A DNA stretch of 64,000 nt from a virus (Duplodnaviria; Caudoviricetes), in IMG/VR virus record IMGVR_UViG_3300026549_000051, positions 32,001-96,000 of that record; one strand, 5' to 3'. The notes below the pieces were generated by a model that was not told the origin of the DNA, searched no databases, and saw nothing but the letters and a program-made list of their open reading frames with translations. The position numbers were made by a program, and so were the translations under genes. The number at the start of each line of letters is the position of its first letter. Position 1 is the stretch's first letter. Below, in pieces: positions 3,244-32,625 of this stretch.

Positions 3244-3575
3244 TCGCCAAGGTCAATCTTGAGTTCTGCCGCAAAGCGACGAATCTCACGCCTTAGACGC
3301 TCAATATCAAGCTCGGAGTAATAGAACTCTCCGAGCTTTTTGAGATACACATTCTTCTTACGAATCATATCGTTCGAGATAATCTCTTGATCGATGCAGT
3401 CTAAAAACGCTCCGCCTACATCCATATTCTTTGCCTCATAGACGATGAGACTCTTAATATAAGAGGCATTAGTGAGCACTCTTTTAATGTTTGCGACAGA
3501 AAAAACGGACACAATATGTGCCGCCAGCACCCGATACGGGTCGTCATACTCTTTGTGTTTGCCTATACACCCCAT
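3240..3575 (-). CDS. Conserved hypothetical protein
   Basis: Homolog at 62323-62676 (YDDPYRVLAAH, GAFLDCIDQE, YLKKLGEFY shared). Confidence 0.75.
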   Translation of the reverse strand: MGCIGKHKEYDDPYRVLAAHIVSVFSVANIKRVLTNASYIKSLIVYEAKNMDVGGAFLDCIDQEIISNDMIRKKNVYLKKLGEFYYSELDIERLRREIRRFAAELKIDLGD

Positions 3576-4114
3576 GAGCTTCTACTCCTCCTATCTATCT
3601 CTGAGCCATACAACTGCTTTTCTAGTTCCTTTCTCTTTTTTATGGCGTCATCTACATTATTAAAATATCCAGTATACTGAAACTTTTCCTTGAGTTTTAT
3701 CGTTACCTCCCAAGTGTCGTACGTTCCACCTGTTTTTTTATTCCTCACCCTCCTAACTCCAGGGTATGGTCTATTTTCTTTTGCAGATTTTCGCCTACTA
3801 CGATTAGCGGAGTTTAGACTGTACGAGACCTCTCTAAGGTTTTCTCTGCGATTATCTAATTTATTTCTATTTATGTGGTCTATCACCATACCTTTATCTG
3901 GTTTCTTATAGACAACATGGTGTAGAGAGATATTTTTTGTTTTCCCGTTCTCTTTTACCGACTTTATAGCGTAACCGTGTGAGTCTAATCTCCAGCTATT
4001 CATTTCTACTTTGTACACATCATCAGCAGATACAAGAGCGTACCCTTGTTTTGCGTTTTCGCCTAGCGGGACAAACCCAACACCGTCTTTTATAATAATA
4101 GCCCTAGCCTTCAT
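3563..4114 (-). CDS. HNH homing endonuclease with AP2-like C-terminal domain
   Basis: VIDHINRNKLDNRRENLR HNH motif, then YPGVR..WEVTI..YTGYF AP2-like segment; AT-rich; absent from copy B; ATG overlaps the upstream TGA. Confidence 0.85.
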   Translation of the reverse strand: MKARAIIIKDGVGFVPLGENAKQGYALVSADDVYKVEMNSWRLDSHGYAIKSVKENGKTKNISLHHVVYKKPDKGMVIDHINRNKLDNRRENLREVSYSLNSANRSRRKSAKENRPYPGVRRVRNKKTGGTYDTWEVTIKLKEKFQYTGYFNNVDDAIKKRKELEKQLYGSEIDRRSRSSWGV

Positions 4115-4425
4115 AAACCCCAAGACCCCCTTCGCCGTCTACTCCCTCTCCTGCGAGAGTTCTCTTTTTTACCGCGGTTTGTTTTGCGGGAAACCACCCG
4201 AAGGTTACTTGAGACGTTGTGCCTAGGGTTACTATCTTTATGGTCGATATCTTTTCCGTCGCCCTTATGCACTCTGCCAGATTTGAGGGCTGAGCGTCGG
4301 GCGGAGTTGCGAGACGCACGCTCCGCCTTAGCTTTTGCCGAGCTTTGGAACTTCTCGTATTCGTGCTTAACGCCAGCAGCCGTGCGCTTGCGTTTGCCGT
4401 TTACTGTAACCCAAAGCCTGCCCAC
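4111..4425 (-). CDS. Small basic HNH-motif protein
   Basis: DIDHKDSNPRHN..NLRVVSRKTNR; homolog at 62669-62986. Confidence 0.7.
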   Translation of the reverse strand: MGRLWVTVNGKRKRTAAGVKHEYEKFQSSAKAKAERASRNSARRSALKSGRVHKGDGKDIDHKDSNPRHNVSSNLRVVSRKTNRGKKENSRRRGSRRRRGSWGL

Positions 4426-4427
4426 GA

Positions 4428-4889
4428 TTAAGCCTTTGCTGCAGCTTCGATTTGAGCTTGCATCTTAGCGTATTCTTCTTCGGCCTTCTCTTTTGACATG
4501 CCGTTTAAGATAGCCTTGAAGATGTCTGTCTTGTGTTGGGCGTCCATAAACTCTTTACGAGCAGCTTCGAGTTCGTTGGCTTTTGCGGCGTTAGCCTTTT
4601 CAAAGCCCTCAAAATCTTTAACAGCCTCTTCCGTTGAAGGCAGTGCACGGTATTCGTCTTCAAGCTCCTTGGTAAGTAGGCCTCTGCGCCATAGCAAGAA
4701 CATAATATTGTTGGCTTGAGAAACCATCCAACCCTTGAGCATAGCTTCGCAATACCCATCCCCGTTCACCATGCCAGAAGCGTTGTTGAAAATCTCTGGC
4801 ACATTAGAGAAGTGCGCGATGTCGTTCTCGTCCGTCAAAATATCTAAGGCTTTTTTAATTAACTGGTTTGCTTGTTTAGCAGTTTCCAT
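4428..4889 (-). CDS. Conserved hypothetical protein
   Basis: Homolog at 62986-63447; GAGGAG RBS. Confidence 0.8.
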   Translation of the reverse strand: METAKQANQLIKKALDILTDENDIAHFSNVPEIFNNASGMVNGDGYCEAMLKGWMVSQANNIMFLLWRRGLLTKELEDEYRALPSTEEAVKDFEGFEKANAAKANELEAARKEFMDAQHKTDIFKAILNGMSKEKAEEEYAKMQAQIEAAAKA

Positions 4890-4926
4890 GCTTTCTCTCC
4901 TCGTTTAGATTACTAATCTAAGTTTA

Positions 4927-5610
4927 TCATTCTACCAGCTTCAAGCCAAGTCGGTTAAGGAAAGCGGTGTCTTCTGGAGAGAGGCGCGTGCCGTAGTTCA
5001 TATCGACATAACTATCGCCCACATTGTATGCAAGGTTTGGAAGTTTAGTACCCTGGTTGCGAGTAACGATATTATAAAGCTGGTTGTACTCCTGCTCATT
5101 TAGTGCTCGTGCTGCTGCATCAAGAATCTGTTGGTTAGTAGTGAGACCAGCACGTTGTGCCACAGTGCCAAAGCGGATAGGAGACTTGTTGGCATTACGG
5201 AATTGTGAACCTCCACTAAGGTCCTTGTAGTAATAATCTCCAGCCTCGTTCAATACGGTCGCGCCGCTCGGCAATGAGGTGTTGGTGTTCGTCTCGTTGA
5301 GGTCATTGATGGCATCGTTAATACTAGCCAGTTGGTTTATATAGTTCGTTGTATTACTGCGTAACTTGTCGAGCCCGGTCTGATAAGACTGCTGAAGTTT
5401 TATCTGGGCGGGGAGATAGGTATTGGTATCATACTGCATCTTTGCACGCTCGGGGAAGTTAGAGTACATCATTCCAGCAGTGTTGGCAGCCCCCATAAGG
5501 TTCTGAAACTGGTTGCGCCTATTGTTCTCCAGGTTCTGCACGCCCAAATCACGCTGGCGATCCAACTCGTTTCGATAGTTAGCAATAAATGAATTTACTT
5601 CATCGTTCAT
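4927..5610 (-). CDS. Coiled-coil hypothetical protein (long allele)
   Basis: First ~105 aa homologous to 63492-63818, followed by a ~120-aa extension. Confidence 0.75.
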   Translation of the reverse strand: MNDEVNSFIANYRNELDRQRDLGVQNLENNRRNQFQNLMGAANTAGMMYSNFPERAKMQYDTNTYLPAQIKLQQSYQTGLDKLRSNTTNYINQLASINDAINDLNETNTNTSLPSGATVLNEAGDYYYKDLSGGSQFRNANKSPIRFGTVAQRAGLTTNQQILDAAARALNEQEYNQLYNIVTRNQGTKLPNLAYNVGDSYVDMNYGTRLSPEDTAFLNRLGLKLVE

Positions 5611-15483: not shown

Positions 15484-15519
15484 CCGAGTCCTTTCCAAAT
15501 TGTATTGTTATTATTTATA

Positions 15520-15765
15520 GTTTCCCCCTACCTTCATTTTACCATACATATTCGACCATGTGTATGGAGCAGATGGGCAATGGAACCAAGAACTTTTTGA
15601 CAAAAAGTTTATCAACTCACGAGGTACAAATGTGAATTTTTTGATGAAAAGTCTATGCGTAAAAGTGAAGGTAATACAACAAAGATTGTAAAAATACGCT
15701 ACCCATCTGCCTCTAGTTTGTGAAGAACCACCACGCTCTTTAACGCCTGACATGGCACGAAGGCA
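15520..15765 (-). ncRNA. Candidate pseudoknotted structured RNA
   Basis: Two crossing long helices plus several local hairpins (see findings). Confidence 0.5.
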
Positions 15766-15770
15766 TTTGT

Positions 15771-16139
15771 TTAGTGGAAGAAGCCTTTTGGCTTCGTATT
15801 GTCCGCGATAAGCGAGACCTTCTCGAGAATCTTGTTCAAGACCTCGATGACGATTTCAGCCTGAGCTTCCGTGAAATTGATTTCAAGTGGCGTGGTTACA
15901 GACTCGCTAATTGCCTCTGCAATTCTCTCCCCCTCGGTTTTACTAGAGGTGTTCTTTTGTAGGACAAAAGTTCGATATTCATCAAGGTCTTCTGCCTTCT
16001 TAATACGCCAGAATGTTGACTGGCTAATATTCATAGCTCGCTGGATCTCTCTGCCAGATAAGCCTGTGTCAATTAGTGTTTTGACTGCATTAAAACTATG
16101 CTCGTCAATTTTGCGATATTTACGAACCTTCTTGTTCAT
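15771..16139 (-). CDS. HTH transcriptional regulator
   Basis: GLSGREIQRAMNISQSTFWRIK helix-turn-helix. Confidence 0.75.
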   Translation of the reverse strand: MNKKVRKYRKIDEHSFNAVKTLIDTGLSGREIQRAMNISQSTFWRIKKAEDLDEYRTFVLQKNTSSKTEGERIAEAISESVTTPLEINFTEAQAEIVIEVLNKILEKVSLIADNTKPKGFFH

Positions 16140-16203
16140 TTGTTTTCTCCAATTAAATTAATATTACATTCACTTTTGTTTGTGTTGTTTTAAACATATC
16201 ACA

Positions 16204-16863
16204 CTATTTTCCTTCAGTCAATTCCTCCTCCAATTTCTTGCACCAGTTCTTCTCCGAGAAGTCTGACTTGCCTTTTAAACAGGCGTAGATGTCATCTTCG
16301 ATAGTTCCCACCGACTTTTGTCTTTTGTAGGCGTCTCGCTTCTGCTTGAGCCTAGCATTATGGCGGCACTCATCGCTACAATATTTTGTTGTACCACTTG
16401 GGACAAATTCTTCGCCACAGAAACTGCAACGCGGATAATCGCCAGCTTTTATACGCTTATATGTTTTGGTGTACTTATAGCCATTATTTTTAAGCGACCT
16501 CCTATTTACCTCCCTTCTCCCATTAAGTCTACACTCGCTACTGCAATATGTATTATGTTTCTCATATGGAACAAATTTTTTTCCACAGAAACAACAGTAA
16601 GCTGTTCTTTTGACATACGGTGCTCTAATAGGCTCGTTATTTGCATGCCATTTCTTATGGCACTTCACGCAAAGCCAGGAAACTTCCAGAGGTTTATTAT
16701 AATCGTTATGGTGTGCTTCCACTTTCTCAGTAGAGCCACAGCATTCACACGGCATCTTAGCCATTGTCCCAGACTTAATCGCCTTACGGACTAATGAGTG
16801 AGCCCTGTGCTCAGCCCTGAACTTCATATATTGATCATGCGTTTTCTCTTGTTCTGTCTTCAT
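16204..16863 (-). CDS. HNH homing endonuclease with Zn-finger repeats, fused to the displaced helicase C-terminus
   Basis: CECCG..EAHHNDY..WLCVKCHKKWH; two CxxCG..YCSxEC fingers; last ~35 aa duplicate the helicase end. Confidence 0.8.
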   Translation of the reverse strand: MKTEQEKTHDQYMKFRAEHRAHSLVRKAIKSGTMAKMPCECCGSTEKVEAHHNDYNKPLEVSWLCVKCHKKWHANNEPIRAPYVKRTAYCCFCGKKFVPYEKHNTYCSSECRLNGRREVNRRSLKNNGYKYTKTYKRIKAGDYPRCSFCGEEFVPSGTTKYCSDECRHNARLKQKRDAYKRQKSVGTIEDDIYACLKGKSDFSEKNWCKKLEEELTEGK

Positions 16864-18067
16864 TTTGACACCACACTTTCTCCGAAAAATCTTGCTTATT
16901 CTTTAAGCACCTCATAATATCCTTTTCTATTGTATCACAACAATAACAGTAGTAGAAGAACATCGGCTTAGTTTGCCCGATACGCTTAATGCGACCGCGT
17001 GCCTGTAATGATGTGCTATATGAGTAATTCGGCGATACCGAGCACCAGTAGTGCATGAACTGTAAGTTCAACGCTTCGCCACCACTAGCGTAGTGAGCGA
17101 CCACGATGTCATATTTGCCTATCGTATCAGGTGTAGGTATCTCATGGTGCTTACCATCAATTCGCCATATCTTCGTCCCCTTAGGCAGAGCCTTCTTGGC
17201 TATTTCGCAAACCACCTCTTCCTCTTCAATGTAATTACAGAAGAAGACGCAGTTATCGCCCAGCCCCTCGATGAACTCCGACAGCCACTCTTGCTTCTCC
17301 TTAGTGAAGCATATCTGCCTGAGGTAATGGCACAAGCCCATCGTGGTTTCGATGAACTCGCCATCCTCTTTGGTGCGGGTCTTCATAATCTTGCGATAGT
17401 TCTTTGGGGCTTTGAACTCAACCACCTTATGTGTTTCCTTTGGCAACTCCCTGAACATCTGAGAGGCATCAGGCGTGGTAACAATGTCATCCCACATCTT
17501 CTTCAACTCATCGACCCTTACATAGTGGTCTATCTCTGGGAAGCCTCGGTATGTATGGACTATGGCATAATTATTCATAAAGTCCGTCTTGTGCTTGACC
17601 TTCCCACACACTGTAAAGTATGTAATAAAGTCTTTCCAGTCGTCCCCAGGCGTGGCTGTGTAGCCAGTCCATACTGTGCAATGGTCGCAGATACGACGGA
17701 AGCCATACCCCATACCAGTCGTATATCCCTTGCACTTCTGCACCTCATCGAACGCGAAGGCATAATTGCCGAGTCGTAATAGAGGCAACTGCAATGAATA
17801 TTTATCCAGCTTGTGCCACGAGATTACCTCAAAACTTTCAAGACTGTCGAGCCATTCCTGACCGTTCCATAGCACGGCTTCCTTCTGCATATCACCTGAC
17901 CTAGCCTTAGTGGCTGTTGTAACGATTACAACACGCTTCCTGCCAGTATCTCTCAGCCAGTTAAACATCACGGCAGTCTTACCTGCACCAGTTGGCAGAA
18001 TGCAAATGCGACTCCCAGCGTCAAGATCGGCAACAGCCTGCTCTTGGAACTTATACAGGCTAGGCAT
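16835..18067 (-). CDS. SF2 (SNF2-like) helicase
   Basis: LPTGAGKT, FDEVQ, YTATP, GGEALNLQ, QARGRIKRIGQ. Confidence 0.9.
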   Translation of the reverse strand: MPSLYKFQEQAVADLDAGSRICILPTGAGKTAVMFNWLRDTGRKRVVIVTTATKARSGDMQKEAVLWNGQEWLDSLESFEVISWHKLDKYSLQLPLLRLGNYAFAFDEVQKCKGYTTGMGYGFRRICDHCTVWTGYTATPGDDWKDFITYFTVCGKVKHKTDFMNNYAIVHTYRGFPEIDHYVRVDELKKMWDDIVTTPDASQMFRELPKETHKVVEFKAPKNYRKIMKTRTKEDGEFIETTMGLCHYLRQICFTKEKQEWLSEFIEGLGDNCVFFCNYIEEEEVVCEIAKKALPKGTKIWRIDGKHHEIPTPDTIGKYDIVVAHYASGGEALNLQFMHYWCSVSPNYSYSTSLQARGRIKRIGQTKPMFFYYCYCCDTIEKDIMRCLKNKQDFSEKVWCQNEDRTRENA

Positions 18068-18386
18068 AGTATTCGCTCTTGATACGAGTTTTCTTCTCTA
18101 AGATAGCACGGACTTCGTCTGATGTATTCGCCTGCATTACCTCAAAGATGAGTTCCTGCATGGCTTGCTCACGGCGTGCCTCGCGTCGGCGTCGGTTGCC
18201 TGATGCATTAGAAGCAATACGCTTCTTACGAAACTCGTCATCAGTATGGTAGCGATTAGTAATGTTCTTTGTGGTCGTTTTTGTGTGTGCCTTACGGCGA
18301 CATTCTTCCGAGCAAACTTGTGGCACTCTGCCACGCTTCTTCTCCACTTCAAACTCTTTGCCACAGATTTTGCATTTAACTAACAT
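18060..18386 (-). CDS. Zn-finger basic protein
   Basis: CKICGKEF..CSEEC. Confidence 0.65.
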   Translation of the reverse strand: MLVKCKICGKEFEVEKKRGRVPQVCSEECRRKAHTKTTTKNITNRYHTDDEFRKKRIASNASGNRRRREARREQAMQELIFEVMQANTSDEVRAILEKKTRIKSEYYA

Positions 18387-18841
18387 CGTCCGTTCCTTTC
18401 TGCTAGTTCATCTAGCGTATATTTTTGGTCTGATACCATATCTTGGATACACTCTTCCTCAAAGTCGGCGAGTGCATCTGCCAACCAGTCCCTCGCGTAA
18501 TATAGTATATCGCTATACTCTTCATCGGTTAGGTCAAGGTGTTGGTCTTCAATATAGTCTATGAGGTTGCCCTCACAGGCTTGCTCGCAGAGGTCTTCAA
18601 AGTTTTCAAAGTAATATTCAGTATGTCCCTCATCGTCCTCGCCAGCCCCATACTCAGCGTTGGCACGCAACCAACTGCGTAGGTTTTCCATATGTAAAGT
18701 CTTCGCATAAACCTGCTCGCCGATACGCTTGATGTCTGCTTCTTGAACAGCATTATAAAATGCTTTGTCGTACTTATGTGGCTCAGGCATGAGGTCATCA
18801 ATGCCCTCTTTAATCGCCAACAAATCTTTAATCTTGCTCAT
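18380..18841 (-). CDS. Acidic hypothetical protein
   Basis: Start moved to MSKIKD (GGAGG RBS). Confidence 0.65.
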   Translation of the reverse strand: MSKIKDLLAIKEGIDDLMPEPHKYDKAFYNAVQEADIKRIGEQVYAKTLHMENLRSWLRANAEYGAGEDDEGHTEYYFENFEDLCEQACEGNLIDYIEDQHLDLTDEEYSDILYYARDWLADALADFEEECIQDMVSDQKYTLDELAERNGRC

Positions 18842-30913: not shown

Positions 30914-32625
30914 TGGGAAAGCTCCTACTTAATGACTATCAAGACGATAATATCTTAACTAATGACCAGATAAAGAAGGCTTTGTCTGGTGATTTTGATG
31001 GGTTTAAGTATTTCTTCGAGAACTGTATTCTCATCCAAGACCGCGATACCCGTCAGTTTATCCACCCGAAGATGAATAAGGGGCAGGAGATGATTGCCCG
31101 TACGATTCTGGGGTATGTGGATAAAAACAGTCGAGCTACTGTGCACAAGGAGTGCGTAATCTTGGGGCCCCGTCAGTTCGGTAAATCTACTCTGCTGACA
31201 GCGATCGCTAACTATATTGTGGCTTATGTGGCTGGGATGGAGAACCTTAACGTCGTGCATACGATGCACCAGGCGACTGCGGCAGCCAAATACTTCAAGC
31301 AGAAGATTGCCCCGATTGTGACGAGTGTTCATCCGTCTATTTTCCCGACAATCGAGCGCGATACTCTCGGCACCTCTACTCTATTGAAATATAAAGACGT
31401 CAAAGGGATTCGTCGTGGCGGATATTACGAGGTTACGTCGGCGGGCTCTAACTCTGTCCGTTCCGGCACTGTATCAGTCTGGCTTTGTGACGAGCCGTCT
31501 GAATACCGTAATCCGGGGGCAGTTGAGGACTCTGTGTCTGGTGCTATCTCTAGCTATGGCTGGTCGTTCACTGCATATATCGGTACTTTCTCTGACCGCT
31601 TGACGGAGTATTTCTTGAATAAAATCCAGACCGCACTTGATAACCCAGAAGAGATGGAGCTCGTGTTTATTCCGTGGTTTTTGGTGTATGGGCGCAAGGG
31701 AGATGGAGCTGGCCTAACAGAGGCTAGCTACACTGACTATGACAAAGAGGTCGTCATCCCAGAGATGCAGAAGTACGGGATACCGAGAGAAGAGTGGCAC
31801 GACAAGATTGGCTGGTACCATCGTCGTGCGCTTCGTACCTCGAAGATGAAGTTTGAGTTCCCGACGTCGATCGAGGATATCTTAGCTTTAACCGCCGATC
31901 GGTCGGTGTTCAATAAGGACTCTCTTGATAAACAGGAGAAGAACATCATCGCAGGTGGGACTTATAGAATCGTTACAGACAATCAGACTGGAAAGGTTGA
32001 GGCTCAGCTTACGGATGTCTCGCCGTTCATCATCTACAAGCCTCCAATTTATGGGCACAAATATCGTATTGCGATTGACCCGATTACAGCTCGTTCAGAA
32101 GAGAGCGATAATTTCGCGATGCACGTTATGGACCTAGCGACACATGAGCAGGTGGCAACCTTTACGGAGAGAGGTCTCCCCGATGAGGACTATGCTGACT
32201 GGGCGGTGAGTATCGGGACTATATACAACAAGGCCGACTTATGCCCAGAGATTAACGTGGCCAATGGGTTCATCGTGGCGGTAAATGCTAGGAAATATTA
32301 CCACTGGTATTACGAGGACAAGAAGGCGAGAGCCGAGCGTATTCCGGGGCTTCGTACCTCTGTGGCTACGAAGGAGAGGATGATTGATGCTCTTTCCTCC
32401 CTCTTAGACCGTGAGGCGATTATTATTCATGACGAGAATACCCTGAGTGAGCTTCGCACGATGGTGAAGCATGTCAAAACTCGTGCCGACGGGACGAAGT
32501 CTCTTCGTATGGCGGCCAAGGGCAAGTGCCACGACGATAGGGTGATGGCCTTGGTTATTTACGCCGGTAGCTTAAACCAGCGTGAGCTCGAGCGTGGCAA
32601 GCGCAGCGGTTGGGCAATTTTGTAG
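30913..32625 (+). CDS. terL: Terminase large subunit
   Basis: GPRQFGKST Walker A, WLCDE Walker B, IAIDP and HDDRVMA RNase H-like nuclease motifs. Confidence 0.92.
   Translation: MGKLLLNDYQDDNILTNDQIKKALSGDFDGFKYFFENCILIQDRDTRQFIHPKMNKGQEMIARTILGYVDKNSRATVHKECVILGPRQFGKSTLLTAIANYIVAYVAGMENLNVVHTMHQATAAAKYFKQKIAPIVTSVHPSIFPTIERDTLGTSTLLKYKDVKGIRRGGYYEVTSAGSNSVRSGTVSVWLCDEPSEYRNPGAVEDSVSGAISSYGWSFTAYIGTFSDRLTEYFLNKIQTALDNPEEMELVFIPWFLVYGRKGDGAGLTEASYTDYDKEVVIPEMQKYGIPREEWHDKIGWYHRRALRTSKMKFEFPTSIEDILALTADRSVFNKDSLDKQEKNIIAGGTYRIVTDNQTGKVEAQLTDVSPFIIYKPPIYGHKYRIAIDPITARSEESDNFAMHVMDLATHEQVATFTERGLPDEDYADWAVSIGTIYNKADLCPEINVANGFIVAVNARKYYHWYYEDKKARAERIPGLRTSVATKERMIDALSSLLDREAIIIHDENTLSELRTMVKHVKTRADGTKSLRMAAKGKCHDDRVMALVIYAGSLNQRELERGKRSGWAIL

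Follow-up and report, generated by a model that had tools for sequence, protein, structure and literature searches.

A candidate 3'-end-replacing HNH endonuclease cassette at the end of a phage helicase gene

In the window analyzed here, a 64,000-nt stretch of a tailed-phage record in IMG/VR (positions 32001..96000 of IMGVR_UViG_3300026549_000051, hereafter G000), a gene for a superfamily 2 (SF2) helicase is followed by an open reading frame (ORF) for an HNH protein with zinc ribbons, and the two end in the same motif. This raises the question of how a helicase gene and its nuclease neighbor came to share a C-terminus, and which of the two copies is the original. The reading that we favor, with a probability of roughly 0.8, is that a free-standing HNH homing-endonuclease cassette of the 3'-end-replacing type, ~631 nt long, entered the helicase gene after the residues FFYY and brought along a replacement for the end that it displaced, so that the helicase is kept whole. 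We refer to the tail now on the helicase as U and to the copy at the end of the HNH ORF as D. The features of the locus are listed below in window coordinates, with (-) denoting the minus strand.

16835..18067 (-): SF2 helicase ORF, 410 aa, ending in ...MFFYYCYCCDTIEKDIMRCLKNKQDFSEKVWCQNEDRTRENA*
16204..16863 (-): HNH ORF, 219 aa, ending in ...KRQKSVGTIEDDIYACLKGKSDFSEKNWCKKLEEELTEGK*
16949..18067 (-): resident helicase body, 373 codons, ending in ...GQTKPMFFYY; assigned by PHROG 62 and by likeness to the bodies of the empty alleles P0006/P0128
16835..16948 (-): U, the imported tail that replaces the native helicase end, 37 codons and a TGA stop; assigned by third-position GC content (GC3) and tail identity across lineages
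16865..16948 (-): part of U homologous to the native tail (CYCCD..VWCQ)
16318..16863 (-): HNH endonuclease proper, with an HNH domain at residues ~10-80 and two zinc-ribbon repeats; assigned by PHROG matches and conserved residues
16204..16317 (-): D, the displaced native helicase 3' end, 37 codons (KSVG..TEGK) plus the native TAG; assigned by its match to P0128
16318..16948 (-): whole inserted cassette (U plus HNH gene), 631 nt; delimited by the alignment break against the relative L001
15771..16139 (-): downstream helix-turn-helix (HTH) gene, Pfam HTH_7 at E 1.7e-5; directly 3' of the helicase in relatives

The helicase ORF carries a Walker A motif (PTGAGKT), FDEVQ, and motif VI (QARGRIKRIGQ), and matches PHROG 62, 'DNA helicase', at E 4e-51; its Pfam Helicase_C and DEAD matches fall below the family cut-offs. 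Motif VI ends 8 codons ahead of the junction between resident body and U as listed above; elsewhere in our analysis the junction was placed 11 codons after motif VI. The helicase terminates in FFYY-CYCCDTIEKDIMRCLKNKQDFSEKVWCQNEDRTRENA (tail U) and the HNH ORF in KRQ-KSVGTIEDDIYACLKGKSDFSEKNWCKKLEEELTEGK (tail D). In a single BLASTP comparison the two tails shared 16/23 residues (E 4e-7), and a shuffle test gave z = 14.6, so the shared terminal motif reported in a preliminary description of this DNA is confirmed as a real duplication of the helicase tail. U and D differ at 7/23 residues, with CYCCD in U instead of LKSVG, and at 28/69 nt; for 10 of the 16 shared residues, their codons differ synonymously. 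To call U a "recoded" end, as had been done, is therefore too strong: the differences are those of a diverged homologue and not of a synonymous rewrite.

U retains all of the tail positions conserved among 120 helicase homologues (TIE.DI..CLK.K.DFSEK.W), and with it the helicase measures 410 aa, compared to 411 aa in empty alleles. The protein is thus complete with U, and no splicing is needed to restore it. The two ORFs overlap by 29 nt. The HNH start codon (ATG at 16863) lies inside U, within the final 10 helicase codons (QNEDRTRENA), which are the 5' end of the HNH gene in another reading frame. At its other end, the HNH frame runs through D to the original stop of the helicase, and the claim that the HNH ORF is fused in frame to the original helicase end was borne out.

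Which tail is native can be read from helicases without the cassette. The 90%-identity cluster of the window helicase includes 411-aa proteins (empty alleles) with 99% identical bodies, and these end in FFYY-LKSVGTIEDDIYACLK(S/G)KSDFSEKNWCK(Q/K)LEEELTEGK. In one of them, P0128, the tail equals D at 37/37 residues and is contiguous with the helicase body. The bodies of P0006 and P0128 are both 99% identical to that of the window, and U matches their tails at 16/28 residues. At the DNA level, the HNH gene was absent in 4/4 IMG/VR relatives for which DNA was available (helicases 59-77% identical), with the next gene directly 3' of the helicase; in L001 and L002, this gene is a homologue of the HTH gene in the window. 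Alignment of the window to L001 holds at 80% identity up to 16948 and resumes at 16309 at 77%. Over the 69 nt of tail shared with this 77% relative, D matches at 53/69 and U at 41/69. Given that 99%-identical helicases carry D contiguously, and that D is nearer than U to the DNA of L001, the comparison of alleles identifies D as the native helicase end, displaced by an insertion of ~631 nt (16318..16948). The preliminary description had predicted that empty alleles would match the downstream copy, and they do.

The left junction follows TTC TTC TAC TAC (FFYY) at codon 373, which puts the insertion 38 codons ahead of the native stop and corrects an earlier estimate of ~35. The right junction falls in CAA|AAG TCG, where the K codon at 16315..16317 can be assigned to either partner. 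A leucine codon that follows FFYY in all empty alleles (FFYY-L-KSVG) is gone from the occupied allele in the window. Among named phages, the best match to the helicase was 28% identical, and a megablast search against 50,697 phage records returned no match.

Composition and phylogeny both point to U and the HNH gene having arrived together. GC3 was 0.59 in the helicase body and 0.70 in D (0.62-0.70), compared to 0.36 in U and 0.41 in the HNH body, in line with the codon-usage contrast noted earlier. In windows of 28 codons, no part of the helicase body had a GC3 as low as U, and no part of the HNH body one as high as D. From these values, and from the HNH start codon inside U, the two are one foreign unit. 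Three helicase clusters, each of at least 90% identity, hold both U-type and normal tails:

Lineage W (the window's), occupied vs empty alleles: body 99% identical, tail 16/28
Lineage B (P0047/P0154 vs P0155/P0156), occupied vs empty alleles: body 99% identical, tail 15/28
Lineage C (P0122 vs P0157-9), occupied vs empty alleles: body 95% identical, tail 11/28

Across these lineages the bodies are 58-65% identical, yet the U tails agree at 18-23/28 positions, while each matches the native tail of its own lineage at only 11-16/28. Because U tails are closer across lineages than to the tail of their own lineage, the histories of tail and body differ. The occurrence of U tails in at least three divergent helicase lineages, each with a normal-tail sister allele, identifies U plus the HNH gene as the mobile unit. 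The locus therefore shows what is expected of a homing gene, in that occupied and unoccupied alleles of one site coexist among close relatives in three lineages and the history of the element is incongruent with that of its host gene, as under horizontal spread of U. U is a diverged homologue of the native tail that co-evolves with the HNH gene, and the earlier proposal that the upstream copy came in with the HNH gene agrees with both GC3 and the similarity of tails across lineages.

The linkage of U to the HNH gene is direct in the window. In lineage W, 410-aa helicases and HNH proteins were found on contigs of equal size (6046 and 35591). In lineage B, 3/3 U-type helicases match members of the HNH cluster in contig size (7793, 4820, and 2171), and 0/2 normal-tail alleles do. 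A back-translated YCCDTIE..DIM pattern had no match in IMG/VR. We also observed shortened proteins in the 90% cluster of the window HNH protein: P0141 and P0147 are 135-aa forms ending in ...NNSYKYTINI after the first zinc ribbon, and such forms occur on up to 9 contigs, one of them 59.5 kb long. They are probably decaying copies, as expected of endonuclease decay.

The HNH protein matched PHROG 2340, 'endonuclease', over residues 10-79 (E 1.7e-22) and PHROG 1271, 'HNH endonuclease' (E 6.8e-10). In an alignment of 30 sequences, C42, H51, H52, D54, C65, H69, and H73 were invariant and C39 almost invariant; the window protein has every one of these residues, and the HNH pattern CxxC ... HH.D/N ... 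C...H...H is conserved. An AlphaFold2 model had a predicted local distance difference test (pLDDT) score of 94-98 over residues 21-80, with strands at 48-52 and 61-65 and a helix at 66-75. The top three structural matches reported by VIA were all HNH nucleases: 4h9d (Gme, Z 4.8), 5h0o (phage GVE2, Z 4.7), and 9qgx (T5 SciA, Z 4.5). A sequence search of the PDB with the HNH protein gave no match. Two CxxC...C..C zinc-ribbon repeats at residues ~88-125 and ~144-175 (Pfam Ecl1 match; YacG-like, Z 4.3) likely form the DNA-binding part. The N-terminal HNH domain has 27,046 relatives at E<=1e-3, and the full architecture of HNH domain plus zinc ribbons is rare, with five representatives at E<1e-30. 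A single-protein scan of IMG/VR with the HNH protein found no relative, and a metagenome scan with the HNH alignment found distant relatives of the N-terminal domain only.

Directly upstream of the helicase, at 18060..18386 (-), lies a 108-aa gene with the same CxxCGxxF...CSxxCR zinc-ribbon motif as the HNH repeats. It matches PHROG 1271/3339 (HNH / homing endonuclease) in the zinc-ribbon region only, and since it is kept in relatives that have no HNH gene, its product may be a resident DNA-binding protein with a zinc-ribbon module in common with the HNH protein. Many distant relatives of the HNH domain (L054, L059, L060, L062, L074, and others) sit directly behind genes with the acidic tail of single-stranded DNA-binding proteins (SSB; ..DDLPF, ..DEIPF), and an HNH-like gene in a sibling genome within the same record (G000 102226..102858) is likewise behind an SSB gene. 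The 3' ends of SSB genes look like a frequent landing site for this domain family.

Comparative genomics supports the following mechanism. The cassette carries a diverged copy of the last 28 conserved codons of the helicase (U), partly overlapped by the gene for the HNH and zinc-ribbon protein. The enzyme would cut or nick unoccupied alleles at or near the FFYY|LKS junction, while an occupied allele would be immune, because 14/27 nt differ past the leucine codon next to the junction. In a co-infection, repair templated by an occupied genome would then copy U and the HNH gene into the empty allele, with homology supplied on the left by the helicase body and on the right by D together with the downstream gene. 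The native 37-codon end D would thereby be pushed downstream, and the HNH frame would come to end at the native stop of the helicase.

The fusion of the HNH frame to D can be traced through relatives of the HNH protein. Where the window protein switches to SVGTIEDD, P0002-P0004 go on with ...R(H/N)KDKYR..., so the window protein is truncated at ...KRQK and joined to D. In the 26-member HNH cluster, D was intact in all 13 full-length (219-aa) members read. Two near-identical HNH proteins, P0002 and P0310, have a full HNH C-terminus followed by ~9 residues of a helicase end, LADNGLADV in one and LAKKGLDDLK in the other, and these are the ends of different helicase lineages. In P0163 and P0309, a whole helicase-like tail follows a long basic extension. 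Since near-identical HNH genes bear different remnants, the fused remnant derives from the recipient, as a right-hand homology arm would. All three types of junction between HNH protein and remnant are in frame, and selection for in-frame fusion is possible but unproven. A sigma-70-like promoter in the end of D (16221..16193) was considered as a reason for its retention and rejected, as this segment held no more such sites than shuffled sequence.

Similar tail duplications were found elsewhere in the record. Record G000 (111,102 nt) consists of two colinear phage genomes of ~55-57 kb, ~65-90% identical, arranged head to tail with an offset of ~57 kb. Such a record must be a chimeric assembly or else a hetero-concatemer, and not one 111-kb genome. 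Its second helicase (~104.4-105.7 kb; L008 1495..2739) ends in a normal tail and lacks the HNH gene. At 3563..4425 (-) in the window, a 104-aa HNH_3 gene is followed by an inserted gene for an HNH_3 endonuclease of 186 aa; the upstream protein ends in RRRRGSWGL and the inserted one in RRSRSSWGV. The inserted gene is absent in 6 IMG/VR relatives, where the native end (RRNRSSWGL-like) and the start codon of the following gene (MG.I..K.YDDPY) overlap, and the displaced piece in the window keeps this coupled start. The preliminary description had pointed to the same strategy at 3563-4140, and the pattern is indeed there on a smaller scale.

A third case lies outside the window at G000 4033..5029 (L251:534-1527), where a VRR-NUC gene (101 aa) ends in YPEVSDKIMGEIRRLL and the next ORF, of 256 aa, in YAENADEIMGEIRRLL. 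Both end in ...IMGEIRRLL (12/16, E 9e-6). The VRR-NUC allele of the sibling genome (L252:187-477) has no such ORF after it and ends in YPENADKIIEEIKRIA. The 256-aa ORF had no Pfam match at E<=0.01 and is a putative nuclease only. Three tail swaps in one ~55-kb genome lend support to the claim that the strategy is recurrent.

To extend this beyond the record, 161 HNH-domain ORFs in 160 loci were surveyed for duplication of the tail of the upstream gene, both at the protein level and in three frames. The survey, which had been suggested earlier, returned one further case, L166, and no other among the 161. In L166:2517-3850 (metagenome contig WBZV01000688.1), an upstream 256-aa ORF ends in MDRLKAIGNGQCPQQAAHAWRELYG, an HTH and HNH gene occupies 3309..3746, and a second, putatively displaced copy, KLKALGNGQVALCAAVAWLMLGG, is found in another reading frame at ~3713..3790 (z 6.9 against shuffled sequence). 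Judged by motif only, the end of the upstream ORF resembles that of a C5-cytosine methyltransferase, and this HNH domain family would have a second target gene in L166.

Other explanations of the helicase locus were weighed against a tail-replacing cassette. The segment could be an intron or intein that is removed, or the tails could be a local tandem duplication into which the HNH gene later inserted. Deletion of 16318..16948 would rejoin FFYY to KSVG in frame, and HNH genes are common in group I introns and inteins. We consider this group of explanations extremely unlikely. No Rfam intron family was found at E<=1 in 15500..18500 and the helicase ORF is complete with its own stop, so group I and group II introns were rejected, splicing of the segment appears unlikely, and the earlier description of the insertion as intron-free is in line with this. 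Against an intein, the helicase tail is complete and conserved, a stop codon (16835..16837) comes ahead of the HNH body, which is read in another frame than the helicase, and no Hint domain was matched. Against a tandem duplication, U and D are 28/69 nt apart despite 99% body identity to empty alleles, and U groups with the U tails of other lineages and has the composition of the HNH gene. Inteins do occur elsewhere in relatives of this helicase: P0007, P0030, P0050, and P0108 are 688-699 aa long and 63-93% identical to the window helicase over the aligned region, and three of the four have a Hint/Vint-domain match. In P0007, an insert of ~277 aa, read as an intein, splits Walker A (LPTG | intein ...THN | TGKT). 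With the window cassette, this means that the helicase gene has been invaded at motif I by an intein and just past motif VI by an HNH cassette.

It is somewhat less improbable, though still very unlikely, that the HNH protein lacks, or has lost, a role in homing, and acts as a domesticated nuclease (in exclusion or against competitors) or as a regulator of the helicase region, with the tails spread by recombination and selection. Domesticated homing-type nucleases exist in phages, and U, which alters 7/23 residues and adds the Cys-rich CYCC, could change the properties of the helicase under selection. The coexistence of occupied and empty alleles whose bodies are 99% identical, the 135-aa variants, and the presence of U in three divergent backgrounds are instead the standard population signature of homing, and the intein in Walker A of a related helicase marks the gene as a recurrent target of selfish elements. 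More weight, while remaining unlikely, goes to an ordinary intergenic homing endonuclease behind a donor helicase, in which case U would be the donor's natural end, co-converted into the recipient, and D and the fusion an accidental scar of microhomology repair. It is established for T-even phages that free-standing endonucleases co-convert the genes beside them (PMC2988022). The truncation at KRQK and the shared junction K codon look like a microhomology join, the retained length of D varies (37 codons in the window, ~9 in P0002 and P0310), and the displaced piece of L166 is out of frame. Against this, no helicase lineage was found with the U-type tail as its only form, U being always a minority beside a 95-99% identical normal-tail allele; the intactness of D in all 13 full-length HNH members, and the exchange of the remnant for the recipient's version in near-identical HNH genes, are what a working right-hand arm would show.

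Several points weigh against the cassette reading itself. The Pfam HNH match (PF01844) has an E-value of 1.1, under its cut-off, and the structural matches to HNH nucleases, at Z 4.5-4.8 on a small domain, lie under the level that excludes chance. A Foldseek search of the HNH model against the PDB returned nothing at E<=0.001, and the whole model gave mostly non-significant zinc-finger arrays. The linkage of U to the HNH gene in lineage B is deduced from matching contig sizes, and lineage C adds no support for it. Cleavage, the cut site, and homing are what we infer, and the same goes for any function of D other than as a scar or homology arm. The recurrence of in-frame fusions is inflated by ascertainment, because most cases were spotted on proteins, where only in-frame pieces are revealed; in L166, the sole case from the three-frame DNA survey, the displaced piece is out of frame. 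Finally, this single further tail duplication among 161 distant HNH-domain relatives means that the arrangement is not a general trait of the domain family.

Beyond the cassette itself, we raise a broader and rather doubtful idea: tail-swapping could be a general, unnamed way for free-standing phage endonuclease genes to live in coding sequence without an intron or intein, with the in-frame fusion being functional. If so, translation ending at the native stop would preserve the signals of the next gene, the helicase C-terminal peptide could bring the nuclease to helicase partners at the replication fork, and one ~55-kb phage would hold three tail-swap elements from different nuclease families.

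The favored reading of a 3'-end-replacing cassette would imply that an essential phage replication gene can host a free-standing homing endonuclease in its conserved 3' end, with neither intron nor intein, because the element brings a spare part. For phage genomics, short gene-end duplications flanking nuclease genes would mark homing junctions, and tail swaps would make mosaic gene ends with a phylogeny unlike that of the rest of the gene. The natural pairs of occupied and empty alleles at 99% identity are ready-made substrates for mapping the recognition site of the HNH enzyme. Three such junctions in one ~55-kb genome suggest that the arrangement may be common but overlooked.

The preliminary description saw here the best candidate for an undescribed class of mobile element, a claim that does not hold, as the architecture is known from Torulaspora WHO elements and from the mobile ORFs (mORFs) of fungal mitochondria. 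A WHO element, as described by the Wolfe laboratory, pairs an endonuclease gene with an alternative version of the 3' part of its host gene, FBA1; its integration replaces the 3' part of the host gene, and old 3' fragments that start at the cleavage site stay downstream (bioRxiv 10.64898/2026.08.13.744650). The 3' and 5' parts of FBA1 have different phylogenies, and occupied alleles resist their own enzyme (bioRxiv 10.64898/2026.08.13.744650). The window cassette resembles these elements in its nuclease gene with a replacement 3' end, its displaced end downstream, and the differing histories of tail and body. Unlike the cassette, WHO elements encode LAGLIDADG and zinc-finger enzymes, reside in a eukaryotic nuclear genome, and replace about half a gene; the phage element has an HNH domain with zinc ribbons and a tail of 37-38 codons. 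In addition, the replacement tail and the endonuclease gene overlap here, the endonuclease frame continues into the displaced tail, and no cluster of successive elements was seen.

Among mORFs, carboxy-terminal duplication was described in atp6 of Allomyces macrogynus and in atp6, atp9, cox2, and nad3 of Glomus (PMC3630166), and mORFs are also present in cob and atp6 of Endoconidiophora (PMC6279837). They insert a foreign C-terminus with an endonuclease ORF near the 3' end of a gene, and the downstream native C-terminus is closer to relatives (91-98% of nt) than the inserted one (64-81%) (PMC3630166). The same comparison of native and inserted ends with relatives gives the same result for the window helicase. 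The nucleases of mORFs are LAGLIDADG or GIY-YIG enzymes in organelle genomes, in contrast to an HNH enzyme in a phage. A fused mORF is in phase with the upstream gene, whereas the upstream gene in the window has its own stop and it is the displaced downstream end that shares a frame with the nuclease.

Within phages, the Seg and Mob enzymes of T-even phages are likewise endonucleases encoded outside introns and inteins that spread by double-strand-break repair with co-conversion of neighboring sequence ('intronless homing'), and the Mob enzymes also combine HNH with a zinc-finger-type DNA-binding region (PMC2988022). The T4 genes differ in sitting intergenically and in cutting up to hundreds or thousands of bp away, with no duplicated gene end (PMC2988022). 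Closer in one respect are the homing endonuclease gene (HEG) islands of ICP1-like and other phages, where, according to Barth et al. (PMC10055350), small ORFs are fragments of essential genes beside homing endonucleases, proposed there as recombination substrates for later homing. The role that we suggest for D is the one proposed there for the HEG-island fragments. A packaged replacement 3' end and an in-frame fusion of nuclease and remnant are, as far as we read, not described there.

In our literature search, whose incomplete coverage makes it weak evidence of absence, no account of a phage element that packages a replacement 3' end was found. What is new here is the HNH nuclease, the phage helicase as target, and the in-frame joining of nuclease and displaced tail; small size is a further distinguishing feature. 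The defining arrangement of a 3'-end-replacing element is present, in that U completes the helicase and D, displaced downstream, is nearer than U to relatives. The cassette differs in having an HNH nuclease and not a LAGLIDADG or GIY-YIG one, and a phage host and not a eukaryotic nucleus or organelle. With such a nuclease and host, the cassette is an analogue of WHO elements and mORFs by architecture and not a relative by descent. A design known from yeasts and fungal mitochondria would thereby extend to bacteriophages and HNH nucleases, and would have arisen independently at least three times.

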